DNA from: an uncultured Clostridia bacterium
GTDB taxonomy: Bacteria > Bacillota > Clostridia > Christensenellales > Borkfalkiaceae
Direction: 5' to 3'
Length of the DNA stretch: 64,000 nt
Assembly: GCA_937912025.1 (NCBI GenBank)
Contig: CALDOZ010000010.1
Coordinates: 4,710 to 68,709 of the forward strand
Shown: piece after piece, positions 2,487-40,636 of the stretch
Layout of the letters: each line of letters starts with the position of its first letter
Numbering within the stretch: position 1 is the first letter of the stretch
Notes under the pieces: model-generated
What the model was told of the DNA's origin: nothing
Databases searched by the model: none
What the model saw: the letters and a program-made list of their open reading frames with translations, nothing else
Program-made: the position numbers and the translations under genes

Positions 2487-3299
2487 TTACGTCTTGTTTT
2501 TAAATTTTCCTGGTGGAACACCGTAAAAAGATTTAAAAAGCCTATTAAAATAATAAATATCATCAAAATTAAGTTTGTCGGCAACTTCGCCTATTGTAAA
2601 TTCTCCGCTTTTTATTAGTTCGCTTGCTTTTCGCATTATTATATAATTTTTGTATTTAATTGGCGACATTCCCGTCGCATTATGAAATTTTTGCCTAAAA
2701 CTACTACTTGACATATTGCACATTTTAGCAAGACTATCAACGTTTATTTGTTCTAAATAGTTGTTTTCAATATAAATAATTCCAGCCGTAACGTCGCTAC
2801 GTTGATTTAACGTTTTATTTATAACTTCGCTTGATATTAGCGTTATAATTTCAAGTAAAATTGATTGACATTTCAATTTATACCCAAGTTTTGAATCGTT
2901 ATAAGTTTGAAGTAGCGAGTTGAAAAGTTTATAATACACCTTAAATTTATCGTTTAAAACTAAAGTTAAATTATCAAATAGCAATACTTCTTTTTCGTTT
3001 TGATATAAGTTAAAGTATATAGACGTAGCGCTGTTATTTTCAGTGTCCGTCCAACAACTTTTATACGTTACGTCGGGCGGTAGATATAAAATATCGCCAG
3101 GTTTTGCATATATAACTAAATTGTTGTTTAGTACAAATTTTGCATTTCCGTTTATTATATAATAAAAACGCTGAATGTTATATTGACCTTTTTTTCTAAT
3201 AGTATATTTTTTAATTTTATTATTGGGAGAATAAAAGGCTAAAATATCAACTATTTTGCATTCATTATTTAAAATTTGTTTTAATTTTTCTATATCCAT
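2487..3299 (-). CDS. AraC family transcriptional regulator (cupin sensor plus C-terminal HTH)
   Basis: 270 aa. N-terminal cupin-like segment (PGDILYLPPDVTY) and a C-terminal AraC HTH (SLAKMCNMSSSSFRQKFHNATGMSPIKYKNYIIMRKA...YYFNRLFKSFYGVPPGKF). Divergent from the operon starting at 3462. Confidence 0.85.
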   Translation of the reverse strand: MDIEKLKQILNNECKIVDILAFYSPNNKIKKYTIRKKGQYNIQRFYYIINGNAKFVLNNNLVIYAKPGDILYLPPDVTYKSCWTDTENNSATSIYFNLYQNEKEVLLFDNLTLVLNDKFKVYYKLFNSLLQTYNDSKLGYKLKCQSILLEIITLISSEVINKTLNQRSDVTAGIIYIENNYLEQINVDSLAKMCNMSSSSFRQKFHNATGMSPIKYKNYIIMRKASELIKSGEFTIGEVADKLNFDDIYYFNRLFKSFYGVPPGKFKNKT

Positions 3300-3461: not shown

Positions 3462-4748
3462 ATGGAAAAATTAAAAATTGGTATAGTTGGTTTTGGGAAT
3501 TATAGTTTTCAATATATAAATATATGGTTAAACCATCCACTTATTGAAAAAGTAGTTGGCGCTGAGTTTTTAGACGATAGACGTAAGCAAGTAGAAGACG
3601 AGTATAAAATTAAAACGTACAAATCGTTTGACGAAATGCTTGAAAACGAGTCAGACCTTAACGCGGTTGCTATTTTCACGGGTAGGCACATGCACGGGCC
3701 TCAAGTTATTAAAGCGCTTAATATGGGTAAAAACGTTTTCTCGGCAGTACCAATGGCGGTTACTGAAGAAGAAATAGTTGAAATCTTGCGTTTGGTTGAA
3801 AAAACTCGCCTTACTTATATGATGGCGGAAACTTGTTATTATTTTCCGTGCGCGGTATGGTGTCGCGAACAATATAAGCAAGGTAAGTTTGGTAAATTCC
3901 AATACGGAGAATCACAATATTATCACGATATTTCAGATATGTTTAGCGCTTTTTACGCGTCTAACGTAAATACCGATAAAAGTTGGAAATGGTTTGCTGG
4001 TATTCCGCCTATGTATTATTCAACTCACTCAACATCAATGCTTTATTCAGTAATTAACGAGTATCCGGTAGAAGTATCGTGTTATGGTATAAGAGATACT
4101 TATAACGACGATATATACGGCGAAGATAAAAACGAGTGGGGCAATCCTTATTCAAATCAAACGTCAATAGTTAGAATGAGTGGTGGTGGCGTTGCAAGAA
4201 TAAACGAATTTAGACGTATTGGTACGACTAAACCGTCGTCGTATTTAAGTAGTTTATACGGCGATTTAGGCGGTTATGAATATAGCGGACAACAACATTT
4301 ATTTTCAAGAAACGTTGAAAACCCAAGAGAATTTTCTACTGAAGACGTTAGCGAACAAGTAAACACTTTTAAGTGGCTTGAAGATAGAAATAAAACGGAT
4401 ATTGATAAATCTCAATTAATTTTTGATTATAAATATCATTGCGGATTTTCGCCTTGTCAAAACTACAACCGTTTGCCTAAAAACTTTTTAACGTTTACAG
4501 AAAAGCAAAAGGAAAATTTTATGCACGGTCATAACGGTTCGCATATTTTATTGGTTGACGATTTTGTTCGCTCTGTTATAACGAAAAAATTACCGCCTGT
4601 TGACCCTTGGTTTGCGGCGTATTGCACGCTTACAGGAATATATGCGCATAAGAGTTCAATGATGGGTGGAGTTCCAGTTAAAATTCCAGACGTGGGACAT
4701 AAACCTGCTGATTGGGATTACATTGATTTTGACGAAATAAAATATTAA
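3462..4748 (+). CDS. Gfo/Idh/MocA family oxidoreductase (long form)
   Basis: AAGGAG SD. N-terminal Rossmann segment KIGIVGFGNY and general Gfo/Idh/MocA layout. 428 aa. Confidence 0.75.
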   Translation: MEKLKIGIVGFGNYSFQYINIWLNHPLIEKVVGAEFLDDRRKQVEDEYKIKTYKSFDEMLENESDLNAVAIFTGRHMHGPQVIKALNMGKNVFSAVPMAVTEEEIVEILRLVEKTRLTYMMAETCYYFPCAVWCREQYKQGKFGKFQYGESQYYHDISDMFSAFYASNVNTDKSWKWFAGIPPMYYSTHSTSMLYSVINEYPVEVSCYGIRDTYNDDIYGEDKNEWGNPYSNQTSIVRMSGGGVARINEFRRIGTTKPSSYLSSLYGDLGGYEYSGQQHLFSRNVENPREFSTEDVSEQVNTFKWLEDRNKTDIDKSQLIFDYKYHCGFSPCQNYNRLPKNFLTFTEKQKENFMHGHNGSHILLVDDFVRSVITKKLPPVDPWFAAYCTLTGIYAHKSSMMGGVPVKIPDVGHKPADWDYIDFDEIKY

Positions 4749-5596: not shown

Positions 5597-6673
5597 ATGT
5601 TTAAAGTATGTATTATCAGTTGTGGTATGATTGCCAACTCGGCGCATATACCAGCGTATAAAAGATTTAGTGATGATTTTGAAATTGTTGCAGTTTGCGA
5701 TATTAATGAAAAATCCGCAAAAGAAACTGCTCAAAATCACGGAATTTCTAAATACTATTTAGATGCTAAAACTATGCTTGACGAAGTTAAACCAGACCTT
5801 GTTTCTATATGCGTTCCTAACTGTTTTCATAAAGAATACGCTATAATGGCGCTTAAAGCAGGCGCAAACGTTTTATGCGAAAAACCACTTGCTTTTACTT
5901 ATAGCGACGCTGTAGAAATGTTTAACGTTGCTAAAGAATGTGGTAAAATTTTAATGGCTTGCCAAACAATGCGTTTTACTCCTGATAGAATTGCCGCTAA
6001 AAAATACATGCAAGCGGAAGGTGTTGGCGACGTTTATTACGGCGAAGTTGCAAGAATACGTCGTAGAGGTATACCATTTTGGGGCGCTTTCCATATTGAA
6101 AAGATTAGTAAAGGCGGAGCGTTTGTTGATATAGGCGTTCATATGCTTGACGCGCTTATCTACCTTATGGATAACCCTGAAGTTTTAAGCGTTACTGCAA
6201 CGACTATGCAAAACCATAAAGACGAAATAGGCTCTTTAGAAGGTAGTGGAGCGTTTACGGGCAACGTTTCAAACGCGAGAAAGTTTAATCCAGACGAAAT
6301 GGACGTTGAAGATTTTTCTTGCGGACTTATTAAGTTTAAAAACGGCGCAAATATCACTTTTAAAGTTGCTTGGGCGGCAAATATGCCAGAATATAACGAT
6401 ATTAAAATCGTAGGCAAAAAAGGTGGACTTTATTTACCTGAAGGTAAAATCTATTTTGGTGAAAAGGGTGAAAAAACTCTTGAAACAACGCCGTGTCCTT
6501 ACGATACGCCTTTTTCTGGTCACGTTTATATAATTGATAACTTTAGAAAGGTTTTAAAAGGCGAAGAGCAACCTATAGTTAAGCCTGAAGAAACTATTAA
6601 CGTATCTAAAATAATAGAAATGTTCTATAAATCGGCAAAACTCAAAAGAGAGGTTTATTTTGATGAAAATTAA
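5597..6673 (+). CDS. Gfo/Idh/MocA family oxidoreductase
   Basis: AAGGAG SD. CIISCGMIANSAHIPAY Rossmann start and the EKPLA motif (CEKPLAFT). 358 aa. Confidence 0.85.
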   Translation: MFKVCIISCGMIANSAHIPAYKRFSDDFEIVAVCDINEKSAKETAQNHGISKYYLDAKTMLDEVKPDLVSICVPNCFHKEYAIMALKAGANVLCEKPLAFTYSDAVEMFNVAKECGKILMACQTMRFTPDRIAAKKYMQAEGVGDVYYGEVARIRRRGIPFWGAFHIEKISKGGAFVDIGVHMLDALIYLMDNPEVLSVTATTMQNHKDEIGSLEGSGAFTGNVSNARKFNPDEMDVEDFSCGLIKFKNGANITFKVAWAANMPEYNDIKIVGKKGGLYLPEGKIYFGEKGEKTLETTPCPYDTPFSGHVYIIDNFRKVLKGEEQPIVKPEETINVSKIIEMFYKSAKLKREVYFDEN

Positions 6674-7766
6674 AAGCGTAATTATTGGTTTTTCTCATAT
6701 GCACGTTAACGAAGTTGCGTTATATATTAGCGAAAGGGAAGATATGGAACTTGTTGCCGTTGCCGATGCTGATAGCGGTAACGAGCAAATAGACGGCTAT
6801 CGTTATACTCAAAAATGGAATTTACAAAACGTTAAAGAAAAATACTGCTCTAACGTTTATGAAGATTTTAAAGTTATGCTTGACGAAGTTAAGCCTGACG
6901 TTGCGTTTATTTTAACTGAAAACTCGTTAAAACCGTATATAGTTGAAGAATGCGCTAAACGTAAAATTGACGTTTGTATTGAAAAACCTATGGCGGTTAG
7001 TTTAAGCGAGGCTAAAAAAATTAAAGAAAGCGTTGAAAAATACGGTATTACAGCGCTCGTTAACTGGCCTGTTGCGTGGAGACCTTACGTTCATAAAATG
7101 AAAAAGGCGCTTGATAGCGGTGTGGTAGGGAAGCCTATTAAACTTCGCTATATAAACGGTCATACAGGACCGCTTGGTAAAGGCGCTAAACATCGTGGCG
7201 TAAGCGAAAACGCCGAAGAAATGACTGACGAAGTTAGAAGTAAAACGTGGTGGCATAAGTCTGAGTACGGTGGTGGCGTGTATCTTGATATAGCGTGCTA
7301 CGGTTGTTATTTTGCCGATTGGTTTTTAACGGGTAACGCTAACTCGGTTGTGAGCGTAGGTAAAAATTTAAATACTCCTTTTGGAGATACGGACGACAAC
7401 TTTGGCGCTATTATTAGTTACGATAAGCAAATGGCGGTTATTGAAGGAACGTGGACTACTCCGCGCGTTGTTATTCCGTCAGGACCAATGCTTCTATGTG
7501 AAAACGGCGTAATTACTTGTACGGGTGGCGCTGAAAATATGCCAGACGTTAAAGTTTACGATATTTATGGTAACGAGATTGTTATTGACGACGTAAATAT
7601 GCACGTTAAATACAAAAATATGCCTAATATGTACGCCGAATTAAAAAACAATAATCAAGAAGTTTTCGAGATGGTTACTCTTGAAAAAAATATGGAAATT
7701 ATGGCGTTACTTGACGCTTGTATTGAAAGTTCAAAAAACGGTAAAAGCGAAAAAGTTTTAAAATAA
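6663..7766 (+). CDS. Gfo/Idh/MocA family oxidoreductase
   Basis: I prefer the ATG at 6663 (AGAGAGG SD 8 nt upstream) over the TTG at 6660. Overlaps the preceding gene by 11 nt. Carries the CIEKPMA motif. Confidence 0.75.
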   Translation: MKIKSVIIGFSHMHVNEVALYISEREDMELVAVADADSGNEQIDGYRYTQKWNLQNVKEKYCSNVYEDFKVMLDEVKPDVAFILTENSLKPYIVEECAKRKIDVCIEKPMAVSLSEAKKIKESVEKYGITALVNWPVAWRPYVHKMKKALDSGVVGKPIKLRYINGHTGPLGKGAKHRGVSENAEEMTDEVRSKTWWHKSEYGGGVYLDIACYGCYFADWFLTGNANSVVSVGKNLNTPFGDTDDNFGAIISYDKQMAVIEGTWTTPRVVIPSGPMLLCENGVITCTGGAENMPDVKVYDIYGNEIVIDDVNMHVKYKNMPNMYAELKNNNQEVFEMVTLEKNMEIMALLDACIESSKNGKSEKVLK

Positions 7767-7786
7767 AAAAGTATTTGAGGTATTAA

Positions 7787-9997
7787 ATGCTTACCTATAA
7801 TGATAGACTAAAAATTTTACGTCAAACTAAAATCGAGCATACTTTAGCAAAGAAAATACAAAACGGTTATACTGATCTTGACGATTTTGGTACTGTGCCA
7901 ATATCAGAAGGTTACGAAGTTATGCCGTGGTATAATAGCGCTAACGGAAGTTTTTACGGTTACGACGGAATGAGCGAAAACTTTTGTAGGGTAATTGATG
8001 CTCACGAACCGTACGTTGATGCTATGGAAATGCTTTGCGGTAGATGGCGAGATATGCTCGTTAACTATCGTGGCGACGTTCACTACGCACCTAATTGGTT
8101 AAAAAATAAACCCGAAGTAATGAAAGTGATGAGTAGCGCTGATACTCAGTTTAGTAAGCGTTGGGATGAGCAACGTTTTCCTTACGATCATTTGAAACCG
8201 TTGCAGAAAAAATATAATATTCAAACAGGTATTGACGGTGATGCTCATCTTGCTTGCGATTACTCTATCGGTTTTGAGTTAGGTTTTGGTGGACTACTTG
8301 AAAAAATTCGTAAATATCGCGATATTAACGTAAAAAATAAAGATTTTTATAATGCCGAAGAAAAGGTTGTTCTTGCTATAATTAGGTTTATAGATAGGCA
8401 TATCTTAAAAATTGAAGAAATGCTAAAAAGCGAAACAAGACCTGAAATTGTTACGTCGCTACAAGATATGCTAACTGCTTGTAAAAACGTAAGACTTAAT
8501 CCTCCTAAAACTTTTCACGAAGTGTGTCAATGGACGGCGTTTTTTAATTGCGCGTCAAGAATATATACTCGTGACGGCGCAGGTTTTCAACTTGACGCGC
8601 TTTTATATCCGTATTACCTTCGCGATAAAAAGGAAGGTATTTTAGATGATGAAAAGGCTAAATTTTTAATAGCGAATTTACTTTTAATTGATCCCCATTA
8701 TTATCAAATTTCTGGTGTTGACGAGTTTGATAACGATTTAACCAACGAGTTGTCTTATTTAATTTTAGATGCGGCGGACAGTATAAATATTGCTTGCAAC
8801 TTGACTGTTCGCGTACATGATAATTGTGACGCTAAGTTCTTTGATAAAGCCGTTTATTACCTTATTAAAAACAAAAACGGTTGGCCTAGATTTTGTAACG
8901 ATAAGGCGCTTTCAGAAGGTTATATGAAAAACGGTGTTGATAAAAAGACGGCGCGCGAACGCATTGCCGTAGGTTGTAATTGGATGTGTGTTCCGGGTAA
9001 GGAATTCCCTATGAACGATACCGTTAAAATAAACGTTGCAAAGGTTTTTTACGAAGCGTTTATGGAAATGAAAGACGAGCCCAATAAAAGTACGCAATTA
9101 TTATATGAGATTTTTGAAAAGCATCTTAAAATTGCAATTGACGTTACAGCGCAAGGTGTTAACTTGCATATTGATAATCAATGGCAAGTAACTCCTGAAC
9201 TCATCATGAATTTAATGATGAAAAACACTATTGAATTAGGTCAAGATATTTCTAAATGCGCCGAACTTTACACGGTTGGCGTGGACGGAGTTGGTCTTGC
9301 CGTTGTTGCTGATAGTTTTGCGGCGCTTAAAGTTAAGGTTGAAAATGAAAAAGTTCTTGATTGGAAAACTGTTTACGAGCAAATTGAAAACAATTTTGAA
9401 AACGAGCGTGTAAGACTTATTTTAAATTCAACTCCTAAATATTGTAGTGGAAATAGCGTTGCCGACGAATACGCTTTAAAATTAACTCAAACGTGGGTTA
9501 AAAACGTTAAAAATCAAAAAATGCCAAAAGGAAGACAGTTAATCCCGGGCTGGTTTAGTTGGGCAAGGTCGGTTGAATACGGCAAAACTGTCGGCGCTAC
9601 TCCTAACGGTCGCTTTGCAGGCACTCCCGTTTCACACGGCGCAAACCCAAACCCGCGTTTTAGAATAGACGGCGCTGCAACAGCGCAATCAAATGGTATA
9701 GCGTCAGTCCAATGTGGTTATGGTAATACCGCGCCTTTGCAAATTGAGTTTGACCCGCAAGTTGCCGAAGAAAACGGCGTTGCTATTATCGGCGCGTTTA
9801 TAAAAGGTCATTTTGCTAAAGGTGGAACGCTGATAAATATAAACGTTCTTGACGGTGATAAACTTTTAAAAGCGCATGAAAACCCAGATTTATATCCCGA
9901 TTTAGTCGTTAGAGTTACAGGATTTACCGCTTATTTTGCAACTTTATCTCCTGAATTTAGACAACTTGTCGTTGATAGATTTATTAAAGGTATGTAA
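7787..9997 (+). CDS. Glycyl radical enzyme, PFL-like fold, unknown substrate
   Basis: 736 aa with a GAGGT SD. C-terminal glycyl radical fingerprint VVRVTGFTAYFATLSPEFRQLVVDR (Gly712, nt 9920-9922). Candidate thiyl loop AVGCNWMCVPG (Cys397, nt 8975-8977). The Cys-to-Gly spacing of 315 aa equals that between Cys419 and Gly734 of E. coli PflB. Confidence 0.85.
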   Translation: MLTYNDRLKILRQTKIEHTLAKKIQNGYTDLDDFGTVPISEGYEVMPWYNSANGSFYGYDGMSENFCRVIDAHEPYVDAMEMLCGRWRDMLVNYRGDVHYAPNWLKNKPEVMKVMSSADTQFSKRWDEQRFPYDHLKPLQKKYNIQTGIDGDAHLACDYSIGFELGFGGLLEKIRKYRDINVKNKDFYNAEEKVVLAIIRFIDRHILKIEEMLKSETRPEIVTSLQDMLTACKNVRLNPPKTFHEVCQWTAFFNCASRIYTRDGAGFQLDALLYPYYLRDKKEGILDDEKAKFLIANLLLIDPHYYQISGVDEFDNDLTNELSYLILDAADSINIACNLTVRVHDNCDAKFFDKAVYYLIKNKNGWPRFCNDKALSEGYMKNGVDKKTARERIAVGCNWMCVPGKEFPMNDTVKINVAKVFYEAFMEMKDEPNKSTQLLYEIFEKHLKIAIDVTAQGVNLHIDNQWQVTPELIMNLMMKNTIELGQDISKCAELYTVGVDGVGLAVVADSFAALKVKVENEKVLDWKTVYEQIENNFENERVRLILNSTPKYCSGNSVADEYALKLTQTWVKNVKNQKMPKGRQLIPGWFSWARSVEYGKTVGATPNGRFAGTPVSHGANPNPRFRIDGAATAQSNGIASVQCGYGNTAPLQIEFDPQVAEENGVAIIGAFIKGHFAKGGTLININVLDGDKLLKAHENPDLYPDLVVRVTGFTAYFATLSPEFRQLVVDRFIKGM

Positions 9998-10011
9998 TTG
10001 AATATTAAGTA

Positions 10012-10047
10012 AAAAACAACTCTAATATTTTAGAGTTGTTTTTTTTA
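10012..10047 (+). terminator. Rho-independent terminator after the glycyl radical enzyme gene
   Basis: 11-bp stem AACAACTCTAA (10015-10025) with TTAGAGTTGTT (10030-10040). 4-nt loop and a T-run. Confidence 0.85.
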
Positions 10048-13070: not shown

Positions 13071-13829
13071 ATGAAATCAATAGTTATTTTCAACCAAAAA
13101 GGTGGCGTAGGCAAAACGTCTACCGTCGTTAACTTGATGGCGGAACTTCATAACGCTGGCAAAAAAGTACTTGCGTTTGATTTAGACGGGCAAGGTAATC
13201 TTACAAAATTTTTACAAGCGCCTACAGAAGATAAAAATACTGTGCGTGAACTTTTACTTAAAGAGGCGACTTTTTCTGAAACTGTTCAGCATACTAAGTA
13301 TGGCGATCTTATTCCGGCAGACGAAGCGCTACAAGGCGAACTTTTACGATTTGCATCAATGCCTGCGTTTATATTGAGTTTAAAAAATATAGTCAAAAAT
13401 CTTGGTGGATACGACGTTGTTTTAATGGATTGTGCGCCTAGTCCTAACCAAATTACCGTTGCCGCTCTCGTTGCTGCAGACTATACTATAATTCCAACCG
13501 AAGCCGAATATTTTAGCGCGGACGGCGTTGCTAAACTTTATAATACTATCGAGCAAGTTAAACAGCTTAATGAAAGCCTTAAAGTTTTAGGTCTTTTAAT
13601 AGTTAAGTATAACGGTAGAAGAAGTTTAACATCACACATTGAAAAAGTGCTTAACGACGCTGCAACTCGCGTATTCAAAAGTAAAGTATTTAAAACTAAA
13701 ATTAGTTTTACGGTAGACGTTCCATCTTCTCAAGCGCTACATTTATCTGTTTCTGATTATAAAAAGAATTCAAAAGTGGCGGTTGATTACCGTAATCTTA
13801 CTAAAGAAATATTGGAGGATATTAAATAA
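13071..13829 (+). CDS. parA: ParA/Soj-family partition ATPase (small, type Ib-like)
   Basis: Deviant Walker A NQKGGVGKTST, then DLDGQGN, then Walker B VVLMDCAP. 252 aa with no N-terminal HTH. GGGGG SD. Confidence 0.9.
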   Translation: MKSIVIFNQKGGVGKTSTVVNLMAELHNAGKKVLAFDLDGQGNLTKFLQAPTEDKNTVRELLLKEATFSETVQHTKYGDLIPADEALQGELLRFASMPAFILSLKNIVKNLGGYDVVLMDCAPSPNQITVAALVAADYTIIPTEAEYFSADGVAKLYNTIEQVKQLNESLKVLGLLIVKYNGRRSLTSHIEKVLNDAATRVFKSKVFKTKISFTVDVPSSQALHLSVSDYKKNSKVAVDYRNLTKEILEDIK

Positions 13830-14122
13830 TGGCTAAAAAGCAATTTAATCTTGATAATTTATTTGCAGATACAATTAAAACTGAAGTTGAAACGGTTACT
13901 CCTATCGTAAAACCTGCTGAAACGGTAAATAATGACGTTAAAAAGGCAAAATCTAATAAGTCGGTACGTTCAATTTATATTGACGACGAACTTTGGAATG
14001 ATTTTATGGTTTACGTTAAATTAAACGGCGGTAAGACCGTTGAAGTTACTAATAACATTATTAAACGCGCGGTTGATGAAAATAGAGAAAAGATTGAAGC
14101 GTTTAAAAAACTTATGCAATAA
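13829..14122 (+). CDS. Small ParA partner protein, possible ribbon-helix-helix centromere binder
   Basis: 97 aa. The start overlaps the parA stop (TAATG) and has a GGAGG SD. The N-terminal half looks disordered and Lys-rich. The C-terminal half (RSIYIDDELWNDFMVYVKLNGG...NNIIKRAV) fits a strand-helix-helix pattern. Function is inferred. Confidence 0.5.
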   Translation: MAKKQFNLDNLFADTIKTEVETVTPIVKPAETVNNDVKKAKSNKSVRSIYIDDELWNDFMVYVKLNGGKTVEVTNNIIKRAVDENREKIEAFKKLMQ

Positions 14123-37095: not shown

Positions 37096-37141
37096 TACAT
37101 ATACTGAGCAAAAAAGTGCAAAATGTTGTGTGGAGGCAATT

Positions 37142-37867
37142 ATGGAAGGTAAAATTCATTCCGTTTTTTCAGGCGGTACGGTTGACGGTCCGGGAATACG
37201 TTTCGTTGTCTTTATGCAAGGTTGTCCGTTAAGGTGCAAGTATTGTCATAATCCTGACAGTTGGCTCGTTCAAGACGGGGAAGTTCGCACAGTTAGCGAC
37301 TTAACTAATGAAATTATTAAATACCGCAATTATTTTGGCGAAAAAGGCGGGTTGACGGTTTCTGGCGGAGAACCGCTCGTTCAAATTGATTTTGTTATTG
37401 AACTTTTAAAAACGGTAAAGCGTTATGGAATAAATACCGCGGTTGATACGTCTGGTTACTTGTTTAAAATTGACGATGAACATACGTTAAAAAAATATCA
37501 AGAACTTGATAAGTATTGCGACCTTTATTTGTTAGATATTAAACATATTGACGATGATAAACATAAGCAACTTACCGGTGTTACAAATAAAAACACTTTA
37601 AACTATGCTAAATGGCTTAGCGATAGGGGAAGTAAAGTTTGGATAAGGCACGTTTTAGTTCCAAATTATACTGATAATGACGAAGACCTTATAAAACTTT
37701 CAAACTTTATTAAAACGCTTAAAAACGTTGAAAAAGTAGAAGTTTTGCCATATCATACTATGGGTATTGTCAAATATAAAAATTTAGGGTACGACTATCC
37801 GCTTAAAGACGTTCCTGCTCCTACTAAAGAAAGGGTACTTAACGCAAAGAAAATTTTAGGTGTATAA
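37142..37867 (+). CDS. pflA: Pyruvate formate-lyase activating enzyme (radical SAM)
   Basis: I prefer the ATG at 37142 (GGAGG SD at 37132-37136) over the GTG at 37130. GKIHSVFSGGTVDGPGIRFVVFMQGCPLRCKYCHNPD is the canonical PflA N-terminus with a Cx3Cx2C motif. Confidence 0.93.
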   Translation: MEGKIHSVFSGGTVDGPGIRFVVFMQGCPLRCKYCHNPDSWLVQDGEVRTVSDLTNEIIKYRNYFGEKGGLTVSGGEPLVQIDFVIELLKTVKRYGINTAVDTSGYLFKIDDEHTLKKYQELDKYCDLYLLDIKHIDDDKHKQLTGVTNKNTLNYAKWLSDRGSKVWIRHVLVPNYTDNDEDLIKLSNFIKTLKNVEKVEVLPYHTMGIVKYKNLGYDYPLKDVPAPTKERVLNAKKILGV

Positions 37868-38340: not shown

Positions 38341-40374
38341 ATGAAAAATTACAAAGGTTGGGAAGGTTTTATTCCCGGCAAATGGTCTGATGATGAAGTT
38401 AACGTAAGAGATTTCATTCAAAAAAACTACGCTCCATACGAAGGTGATGATAGTTTCCTTGCTCCTGCAACCGAAGCAACTAAACAACTTTGGAAGGAAG
38501 TAATGGAATTAAGCGCTAAAGAAAGAGCAAACAACGGCGTTCTTGACGCTGACACAAAAGTTGTATCAACTCTTACAAGTCACGGTCCTGGATATATTAA
38601 TAAAGACCTTGAAACAATCGTTGGTCTTCAAACTGATGCTCCGTTCAAACGTTCGCTTCAACCGTTTGGTGGTATTAAAATGTCATCGCAAGCGCTTGAA
38701 ATGTATGGATATCAAGTTGATCCGTTGGTTACTGAAATTTTCACTAAATATCGTAAAACTCATAACGACGGTGTATTTGATGCTTATACTCCAGAAATGC
38801 GCGCATGCCGTTCTTCACACATCTTAACAGGTCTTCCTGATACTTACGGTCGTGGTAGAATTATCGGTGACTATAGACGTGTTGCTCTTTACGGTGTAGA
38901 TTATCTTATTAAGAAAAAAGAAGAAGATAAACTTCTTATTTGCGGAGAAATGACTCCTGATAAGATTAGAAACAGAGAAGAAATTTCTGAACAAATTAAG
39001 GCATTAAAAGGTCTTAAAGAAATGGCTAAAATTTACGGTTGTGACATTAGCGAGCCAGCAACTACTGCTAAAGAAGCAATTCAAGCGGTATACTTCGGTT
39101 ACCTTGGCGCTGTAAAAGACCAAAACGGCGCGGCAATGTCTATCGGTCGTACTTCTACTTTCCTTGATATTTATATTGAAAGAGACCTTAAAAACGGCGT
39201 TATTACCGAAAGCGAAGCGCAAGAATATATGGATCACTTCATTATGAAACTTCGTATGGTAAGATTTATGAGAATTCAATCTTACAACGAACTTTTCTCA
39301 GGTGATCCTACTTGGGTTACTGAAGCGATTGGTGGTATGGGTGTTGACGGTAGAACTTTAGTTACTAAAAACTCTTTCCGTGTTCTTCACACTCTTATTA
39401 ACCTTGGTCCTGCTCCAGAACCAAACCTTACGGTTTTATGGTCTAAAAATCTTCCTGCAAATTTCAAAAAATTCTGCGCTAACGTTTCTATCAAAACGTC
39501 TGCTATCCAATATGAAAGTGATGACCTTATGAGACCTGAAATGGGTGACGATTACGGTATTGCTTGTTGCGTATCTTGTATGAAGATTGGTAAAGACATG
39601 CAATTCTTCGGCGCTCGCGCTAACCTTGCAAAGTGCTTACTTTACGCTATTAACGGTGGTAAAGACGAATTAATGAAGGATAAAGTTACAGGCAAACCAA
39701 TGCAAGTTGGTCCTAAGTTTGAAGCCATTACTTCTAACGAAGCTCTTGACTTTAACGAAGTTATGGATAAATATACTCAAATGATGGAATGGCTTGCCGG
39801 TGTATACGTTAACGCTCTTAACCTTATCCACTACATGCACGATAAATACGCTTACGAAGCAATTGAAATGGCTCTTCATGATTCTAATGTTAGAAGATTC
39901 TTTGCTACCGGTGTTGCAGGTCTTTCTTGCGTTGCAGACTCACTTTCGGCTATTAAATATGCTAAAGTATACCCAATTAGAAATGAAGACGGTATCGTTG
40001 TTGACTTCAAGATTGAAGGTGAATTCCCTAAATACGGCAATAATGACGATAGAGTTGACGAACTTGCAGTTACTCTTGTTAAAAAGTTCATGAATATGAT
40101 TAGAACTCACTATACTTATAGAGATTCTGTTCCAACAATGTCAATTCTTACTATTACTTCAAACGTAGTTTACGGTAAAAAGACTGGTAATACTCCTGAT
40201 GGTAGACGCGCAGGCGAACCTCTTGCTCCTGGTGCAAATCCAATGCACGGTAGAGATACTCACGGCGCTCTTGCTTCACTTGAATCAGTTGCAAAATTAC
40301 CATACGAATATTCTAGAGACGGTATTTCTAATACGTTCTCAATTACACCTGAATCATTAGGTAAAGACGATTAA
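38341..40374 (+). CDS. pflB: Formate C-acetyltransferase (pyruvate formate-lyase), large catalytic subunit lacking the glycyl-radical segment
   Basis: 677 aa. Strongly PflB-like throughout. Active-site IACCVSCM (Cys409/Cys410, nt 39565-39570). Ends ...[13 protein letters not shown], just before the position where the Gly-radical domain begins in one-piece PFLs. Confidence 0.93.
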
Positions 40375-40402
40375 TATAATAATATATAATAGGAGGTTTA
40401 TT

Positions 40403-40636
40403 ATGTCTCAAAAAGTTGATAATTTAGTTAATATGTTAGATGCTTATTGCGCTAATGGTGGACATCACCTTAACGTAAACGTTTTCAATCGTGATACGCT
40501 TTTAGACGCTCAAAAACATCCTGAAAAATACCCACAACTCACTATTAGAGTTTCTGGTTACGCTGTAAACTTTATTAAGCTTACAAAAGAACAACAGGAT
40601 GACGTAATTTCTCGTACAATTCACGAGTCGATGTAA
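40403..40636 (+). CDS. Stand-alone glycyl-radical subunit of PFL (GrcA-like, 77 aa)
   Basis: Own AGGAGG SD 7 nt upstream, and a different reading frame from pfl[55 protein letters not shown] is the PFL C-terminal radical domain (Gly52, nt 40556-40558). Confidence 0.9.

Follow-up and report, generated by a model that had tools for sequence, protein, structure and literature searches.

In the present study, we analyzed a 64-kb stretch of DNA from an uncultured Clostridia bacterium, hereafter called the window, and focused on a gene for an oxygen-sensitive glycyl radical enzyme (GRE) of 736 aa. The gene is the last of an AraC-controlled operon that lies divergent from the AraC-family regulator gene, and the upstream part of the operon encodes three Gfo/Idh/MocA-type dehydrogenases and a xylose-isomerase-like TIM-barrel protein (Table 1). 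The GRE carries a Trp residue two positions after its predicted catalytic Cys, and the slot that holds an activase gene in orthologous operons is empty. The results described below showed that this dedicated activase was deleted in an ancestor of the window's clade and that the GRE is still under strong purifying selection after the loss.

Table 1. Features of the GRE operon, and the GREs and activases encoded in the same genome (G000; the window lies on contig C10).
Feature	Position	Strand	Basis or remark
AraC-family regulator, divergent from the operon	2487..3299	-	Pfam HTH_AraC, HTH_18
Gfo/Idh/MocA oxidoreductase, 428 aa, only the N-terminal Rossmann domain recognised	3462..4748	+	PF01408, 2.5e-15
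Xylose-isomerase-like TIM-barrel protein (Hyi/OtnI-like), 256 aa	4824..5594	+	PF01261, 4.8e-27
DgpA-like Gfo/Idh/MocA glycoside 3-dehydrogenase, 358 aa	5597..6673	+	Full-length DgpA/DgpA1 match
Gfo/Idh/MocA oxidoreductase, 368 aa, conserved core partner of the GRE	6660..7766	+	Pfam
Junction, 20 nt, with GAGG ribosome-binding site; activase slot of orthologous operons, no remnant	7767..7786	+	Sequence
GRE, 736 aa, Cys-x-Trp clade	7787..9997	+	ORF call, Pfam, phmmer, AF2; C10, without adjacent activase, unpaired
Cys loop G396-C397-N-W399-M-C401-V-P-G404	8972..8998	+	Aligned with the Cys loops of 1r8w, 2f3o, 8yjo
Gly loop R709-V-T-G712-F-T-A-Y-F717	9911..9937	+	Pfam Gly_radical; homologue alignment
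Terminator-like hairpin, 15-bp stem and T run, closing the operon after the GRE	10011..10044	+	Sequence
PflA, activase of the neighbouring PFL	37130..37867	+	Only GRE-activase match on the window contig
PFL	C10		Paired with adjacent PflA
GRE, 708 aa, loop GCWE	C22		Paired with adjacent activase on C22
GRE, 672 aa, loop ACWE	C3		Paired with adjacent activase on C3
NrdD	C9		No second NrdD in the genome
NrdG	C30		No second NrdG in the genome
Standalone PFL2-type activase, 264 aa	G000:C35:1399-2193	-	Without partner GRE; only unpaired activase

The GRE matched the Pfam families PFL-like (PF02901, 2.5e-87) and Gly_radical (PF01228, 4.4e-13), and the protein itself showed hallmarks of the superfamily, namely a PFL-like barrel with a C-terminal glycyl radical domain, a Gly loop of the form RVxG[FWY], and a catalytic Cys. 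The residue positions given by the first-pass annotation of the window were confirmed: the protein has 736 aa, AVGCNWMCVPG begins at residue 394 and holds Cys397 and Cys401, RVTGFTAYF begins at residue 709 and holds Gly712, and Cys397 and Gly712 are 315 residues apart. The same spacing is given in that annotation for E. coli PflB (Cys419-Gly734). The sequence RVTGFTAYFA was unchanged in 120 homologues of 75-98% identity and in every GRE copy that lacks an activase. Since these 120 homologues are 735-739 aa long, the 736-aa protein is not a truncation, and its length, which had been regarded as unusually short, is typical of the family. An AlphaFold2 (AF2) model built from 37 homologues reached a pLDDT of 82.8 and a pTM of 0.87; GRE eliminases and isomerases matched it at a TM score of ~0.8 with ~20% identity, and no one enzyme was clearly the nearest. 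In an NCBIfam scan, every model, including HypD, CutC, HpsG, HpfG, and PRK09983, scored far under its cut-off. The PFL2/glycerol-dehydratase subfamily model TIGR01774 yielded 269.5 bits (cut-off 678.2), the pyruvate formate-lyase (PFL) model TIGR01255 yielded 78.5 bits (cut-off 994), and the HPAD and indoleacetate decarboxylase models yielded 86-100 bits (cut-offs 1100-1150). No ORFs for accessory small subunits, a hallmark of the decarboxylases and X-succinate synthases, were called in the GRE operon, and BSS and MASS were weak PDB matches. On sequence grounds, the GRE is a real and intact member of an uncharacterised Cys-x-Trp clade, within which it belongs to an orthologue group that is likewise uncharacterised.

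The assignment of the clade was based on the thiyl loop. In the phmmer alignments, Cys397 paired with the catalytic Cys of the GCVE loop in glycerol dehydratase (1r8w), A. fulgidus PFL2 (2f3o), and PflD (8yjo), and Trp399 paired with the Glu of this loop in all three proteins. In addition, Asp411 paired with the Asp after the Cys loop of glycerol dehydratase. We also aligned 95 GRE sequences, consisting of 92 full-length representatives (50% clustering), the query, and two close homologues, and the column of Cys397 contained Cys in 95 of the 95. The first-pass annotation had left it to an alignment to decide which Cys is catalytic, and the pairing with 1r8w, 2f3o, and 8yjo identified Cys397 as the predicted catalytic Cys. 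Its observation that the loop is neither C-X-E nor C-C also held, the loop being G-C-N-W-M-C; in the form GCNWMC[VI]PG[KR], it was unchanged across the 120 close homologues. Eliminases, isomerases, and decarboxylases carry C-X-E at this place, and formate-lyases carry C-C.

At the position two residues after the Cys (Cys+2), the 95 GREs carry Glu in 60 cases, Trp in 26, and another residue in 9, and the x of the 26 Cys-x-Trp loops is N, H, Q, F, P, or G. Among clade members of 35-52% identity, Trp399 was invariant and the position of Cys401 was occupied by A, S, N, or G. Because of this replacement, a two-Cys relay through a second Cys at +4, which had been proposed from the sequence at first, is unsupported, and Cys401 was rejected as a PFL-like second Cys. 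The alignment indicates that Trp399, and not Cys401, marks a broad, uncharacterised GRE clade. The Trp and Glu clades can be told apart at only six positions of the 95-sequence alignment. Glu471 (9197-9199, within VTPELIMNL) was present in 100% of the 26 Cys-x-Trp sequences versus 3% of the Cys-x-Glu GREs and was the only clade-specific acidic residue found. It aligns with Thr or Leu of 2f3o/1r8w in the loop after a long helix, which corresponds to no known active-site position.

Previous work has reported that the C-X-E motif is kept in all eliminases and isomerases, with its Glu hydrogen-bonded to a substrate hydroxyl, and that two Cys residues occur only in PFL and TdcE (PMC13450708). In the same 2026 review, whole GRE clades lack an assignment, and a C-x-W class is not described (PMC13450708). 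Our literature search returned no paper on a Cys-x-Trp GRE. To our knowledge, all characterised PFL-like GREs other than the formate-lyases use a Cys-X-Glu loop.

None of the genes in the operon of the window encodes a radical-SAM protein, as the first-pass annotation had stated. To place this absence in context, we compared 80 species loci, of which 74 contain a full-length GRE and 73 of those have readable upstream sequence. The activase gene lies directly upstream of the GRE in 68 of the 74 loci and 1.2 kb upstream in a further one (L064); one locus is unreadable and four have no activase. An activase is thus present at 69 of the 73 readable loci. This cognate activase is a radical-SAM protein of 255-270 aa, and its gene lies between the genes for the 368-aa dehydrogenase and for the GRE and in most cases overlaps with each of them. 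It was found in Qingrenia yutianensis (GRE 77% identical), in a genome of the same genus, in a genome of the same order, and beside a 79% homologue, and it was seen in the orthologous slot in L023, L029, L030, and L032. Because a cognate activase adjoins the GRE in orthologues, the orphan state is secondary and lineage-specific and is no property of the GRE family. The description of the enzyme as an orphan therefore remains correct for this operon but not for most of the orthologous loci. The accompanying expectation, that no activase would adjoin the orthologues or be found elsewhere in the genome, largely failed, given the 68 adjacent genes, the gene in L064, and an unpaired activase on contig C35.

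The activase is missing from the operon in four assemblies, those of the window, P0002/L031 (GRE 98% identical), P0003/L034 (82%), and P0004/L145 (80%), and the three placed activase-less members of the window's group form one clade in the GRE tree. Further activase-less loci, L090/L093/L102 and L107, are separate from this clade, and at least three independent losses are counted (the window clade, L090/L093/L102, and L107). The junctions at the activase-less loci are clean, including the 20-nt junction of the window with its GAGG. A genome-wide search for a cognate-type activase in the window genome and in four other activase-less genomes (G000 and G041-G044) gave only partial matches of at best <=50% identity, compared with 70% in control genomes. 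The activase-less state is therefore a loss and not a relocation. It counts against this conclusion that the metagenome-assembled genome is 94.5% complete and consists of 55 contigs, so that a cognate activase could in principle be in unassembled sequence. However, the operon junction is contiguous, the place that the gene ancestrally occupied is vacant in each of four independent assemblies from the clade, and the four other activase-less genomes also lack the gene genome-wide. It is thus extremely unlikely that the cognate activase is present in the ~5% of the genome that was not assembled.

Two further observations concern the history of the operon. In L064, from the lineage that is sister to the activase-less clade, an inserted ORF of 451 aa (6640-7995) separates the activase from the GRE, and this insertion may represent a rearrangement that preceded activase loss. 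The GRE operon was present in only 2 of the 25 genomes of the genus (G001-G024 and the window genome). The window GRE shares 77-82% identity with copies from other Clostridia but only 72% with the copy of the same genus, which suggests that the operon was acquired horizontally.

To evaluate the state of the GRE after the loss, we calculated the ratio of nonsynonymous to synonymous substitution rates (dN/dS). The ratio was 0.05 against the 98% homologue L031 (synonymous divergence, dS, 0.21) and 0.10 against the 82% homologue L034 (dS 1.47), and it was 0.14 for the adjacent dehydrogenase. Both radical loops, Cys and Gly, are kept in every activase-less GRE copy. A catalytically dead GRE, either a relic in decay or a protein whose role involves no radical, could be expected where no dedicated activase exists and no cognate-type activase is found anywhere in the assembly. 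However, a dN/dS of 0.05-0.10 together with intact radical motifs makes a dead relic unlikely. The clade has diverged to a dS of 1.47 after a presumed single loss, the frame is full-length, the loops are invariant through at least three independent losses, and the operon partners are conserved too, as the ratio for the adjacent dehydrogenase indicates. We consider a dead enzyme very improbable.

The question then was which protein could activate the GRE. The genome of the window organism encodes five GREs (PFL, the window GRE, the C22 and C3 enzymes, and NrdD) and five activases (PflA, the C22 and C3 activases, NrdG, and the C35 activase). The first-pass annotation had reported PflA, 27 kb downstream of the GRE, as the only activase in the 64 kb and had concluded that it must serve both PFL and the GRE. 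PflA is indeed the sole GRE-activase match on the contig, but the genome has others on other contigs. The search for further activases suggested by that annotation found three more PFL2-type activases, of which those on C22 and C3 are paired and that on C35 is unpaired, so PflA does not have to serve both enzymes. Identity to the cognate activases was 39-43% for C35, 32-38% for C22 and C3, and 31-32% for PflA, the lowest of the four.

It is nevertheless conceivable that PflA activates both PFL and the GRE. PflA is intact, with its CX3CX2C motif, and the PFL activase of E. coli activates a second enzyme, TdcE (PMC13450708). However, PFL and TdcE have identical Gly loops (RVSGYAV), whereas the loops here are RVSGYAV in PFL and RVTGFTA in the GRE; in addition, PflA is the least similar to the cognate family, and the genome offers three PFL2-type activases, one of them unpaired. 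We judged PflA to be unlikely, the least likely of the four candidate activators in the genome, and the dual role that had been proposed for it carries little probability.

A second possibility is that the activase on C22 or C3 moonlights on the GRE and that the C35 activase has another target. Each of the two is an intact activase of the PFL2 type, and the activase-less genomes G041-G044 hold 2-6 other activases and no C35 orthologue, so that some non-cognate activase must suffice there. However, the GREs that these two activases serve have quite different Gly loops (RVSGWNA and RVWGWSG) and C-W-E thiyl loops, the C35 activase exceeds both in similarity to the cognate activases, and such moonlighting would leave the conserved standalone C35 activase without a client GRE in the genome. 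We regard this possibility as unlikely, although not negligible.

The C35 activase contains CX3CX2C and, in addition, two ferredoxin-like Cys motifs. By elimination, it would be the partner of the window GRE, since one GRE and one activase are left without a mate in the genome. Orthologues of the C35 activase also occur together with the activase-less clade, which makes it the likeliest activator. The dN/dS of the C35 activase was 0.13-0.19, which indicates purifying selection, and its orthologues (72-97%) are all standalone, each with a Mem_trans neighbour. One sample yielded both the 72% orthologue and the activase-less P0003 operon (82%), at the similar coverages of 2.87 and 2.95. No orthologue above 47% identity was found in 40 relatives, including G001, a genome of the same genus that keeps the operon activase. 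As a relocated cognate activase, the C35 protein was rejected: its identity to cognate activases is 39-43%, compared with 70-77% between the GRE and its orthologues, and it has the two extra Cys motifs. A link to the Trp clade through its partnered relatives was likewise rejected, as these serve a GCNE/RVSGFSD GRE. The Mem_trans gene (auxin-efflux-carrier family) follows the activase gene after ~115 nt (G000:C35:290-2193), and the pair is 72-97% identical in L047, L049, and L050.

Several results weigh against the pairing of the C35 activase with the GRE. Identity between the C35 activase and the cognate activases reaches only 39-43%, and the nearest partnered relatives of the C35 protein (57%) serve a 707-aa C-X-E GRE (GCNE, RVSGFSD). 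Cross-activation is known only among GREs whose Gly loops are almost the same (PMC13450708, section 2.5), and RVTGFTA occurs in no other GRE of this genome. In addition, a search for a C35 orthologue in the other activase-less genomes (G041-G044) found none, so that the pairing would be specific to the window's clade. Taking both sides together, we consider it probable that the GRE is functional and that a non-cognate activase of some kind activates it in trans. That this activase is specifically the 264-aa protein encoded on C35 has a chance close to, but slightly short of, even. As a whole, we lean towards the explanation that the GRE is a functional Cys-x-Trp enzyme whose activase was deleted and which is activated in trans, with the C35 activase as the best candidate.

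Some of the other GRE loci in this genome showed features of their own. The PFL beside PflA is split: a 677-aa ORF (38341-40374) stops before the glycyl radical domain, and RVSGYAV is found in a separate 77-aa ORF (40403-40636) that resembles a spare radical domain of the GrcA type. One TAA lies inside the frame of this split PFL (38341-40636), and a true split, an assembly error, and a pseudogene are all possible. The further short GREs of 708 and 672 aa (L021 and L022; G000:C22:31779-34800 and G000:C3:59967-62844) each have their own activase and AraC regulator. Their thiyl loops read G-C-W-E and A-C-W-E, Trp follows Gly in their Gly loops (RVSGW and RVWGW), and both appear uncharacterised.

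The partner genes of the GRE provided indications about its substrate. The core common to the 80 species loci is the series 368-aa dehydrogenase, activase, and GRE; the dehydrogenase (46-70% identity) lies directly 5' of the activase and GRE in most of the loci. The divergent AraC gene is likewise present in orthologous operons, and orthologues of the 428-aa Gfo/Idh/MocA protein (47-61% identical) occupy the equivalent operon position. The 358-aa dehydrogenase matched DgpA/DgpA1 (7xr9, 9m3d) over its full length, with E values of 1e-52 to 6e-53. DgpA of gut bacteria acts on C- and O-glycosides, which it oxidises at C3, according to two reports (PMC11239390, PMC9939296). Copies of the DgpA-like gene at 66-72% identity were observed in only about one quarter of the orthologous operons; the others have a 39-42% relative at this place. 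For the 256-aa TIM-barrel protein, the NCBIfam models for hydroxypyruvate isomerase, 2-oxo-tetronate isomerase, and 5-keto-L-gluconate epimerase all scored below cut-off, and the distant PDB relatives include the 3-keto-D-glucoside 4-epimerase 6wn6. No transporter gene and no kinase gene was found in the GRE operon. The presence of a DgpA-like dehydrogenase, two other dehydrogenases, and a TIM-barrel isomerase in one operon suggests that the radical chemistry is directed at an anhydro or 3-keto sugar. Elsewhere in the window, a ParA/MinD-type ATPase (AAA_31) and a 97-aa ORF without a family match (13071-14122) lie among metabolic genes and may be what is left of a partition module from a mobile element or plasmid.

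We compared the GRE and its operon with four known systems. The isomerases YbiW and PflD open the rings of 1,5-anhydroglucitol-6-P and 1,5-anhydromannitol-6-P. The window GRE resembles them (8id7, 8yjo, 8id0) in its PFL2-type fold (TM ~0.79-0.80; phmmer E 1e-45 to PflD), in its carbohydrate context, in a single catalytic Cys aligned with Cys397, and in the dedicated PFL2-type activase of its ancestral operon. It differs from them in the low identity (~20%), in having Trp where they keep the Glu of C-X-E, and in its partners, which are Gfo/Idh/MocA dehydrogenases and a TIM-barrel isomerase instead of phosphosugar kinases and aldolases. The C-X-E glutamate of YbiW/PflD deprotonates the C2-OH of the substrate (PMC13450708). 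The glycerol/1,2-propanediol dehydratases and other 1,2-eliminases (1r8w, 5i2g, HypD 6vxc, CutC) gave the best structural matches (TM 0.80-0.81) and, along with 2f3o, the best sequence matches, and glycerol dehydratase shares the Asp aligned with Asp411. However, their C-X-E glutamate corresponds to Trp399, and the window GRE is 40-100 residues shorter. PFL and TdcE are similar to the window GRE in having two cysteines near the thiyl loop. The pair is adjacent in PFL (Cys418-Cys419), whereas the second Cys of the window GRE lies at +4 and is variable in the clade; moreover, PFL matched only the C-terminal third of the window GRE (E 2e-19). In DgpA-type systems (DgpA with the TIM-barrel DgpB/C), the dehydrogenase corresponds over its full length to the 358-aa protein, next to which a xylose-isomerase-like TIM barrel is likewise encoded. 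This barrel, however, is Hyi/OtnI-like and only possibly DgpB/C-like. Among the papers searched, none was found that brings DgpA together with a glycyl radical, and no described Dgp system includes a GRE. For characterised GREs with Gfo/Idh/MocA, inositol, DgpA, or anhydro-sugar partners, the literature search gave only the work on YbiW/PflD, by way of the 2026 review.

Based on these comparisons, we propose a mechanism in which the radical on Gly712 would generate a thiyl radical on Cys397, which in turn would abstract a hydrogen atom from a sugar-like substrate. The substrate would probably be either an anhydro or 3-keto sugar or an intermediate derived from a glycoside, which the NAD-dependent partners would produce or use up, and C-O cleavage or rearrangement would then proceed without the usual glutamate base. 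With the cognate activase deleted in the ancestor of the clade, a non-cognate activase, for which the C35 protein is the best candidate, would act in trans. Against this mechanism, it has to be considered that both the substrate and the reaction are deduced from the gene neighbourhood alone. An attractive but speculative reason why the glutamate became dispensable would be a substrate carbonyl installed by a dehydrogenase. A wider proposal, which we put forward tentatively and consider rather doubtful in its entirety, is that Cys-x-Trp enzymes are a further functional class of GRE acting on substrates preoxidised by their obligate Gfo/Idh/MocA partner, such as a 3-keto or anhydro sugar from oxidative deglycosylation. 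In such enzymes, the substrate carbonyl, and not a glutamate-assisted ketyl, would drive the C-O cleavage or rearrangement, Glu471 may be a relocated acid/base, and the activase deletions, at least three of them independent and with the GRE under selection, would mean that activases are much more promiscuous in vivo than the few in vitro studies imply.

The results have implications for both the clade and its activation. The Cys-X-Trp GREs form a large clade of gut and rumen bacteria without an assigned reaction, and their fixed tie to sugar-type dehydrogenases, DgpA-like in this operon, makes an undescribed anaerobic step of carbohydrate or glycoside metabolism directly testable. What is new at this locus is that a dedicated activase was lost repeatedly while the GRE stays under selection. 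It is recognised that the specificity between GREs and activases is poorly known, and in practice this specificity limits the reconstitution of GREs; a natural case of non-cognate activation with a named candidate activase would provide a defined pair to test. If this explanation is true, the repeated deletion of the activase beside a selected GRE would be natural evidence of activase promiscuity in vivo, beyond the few in vitro studies.

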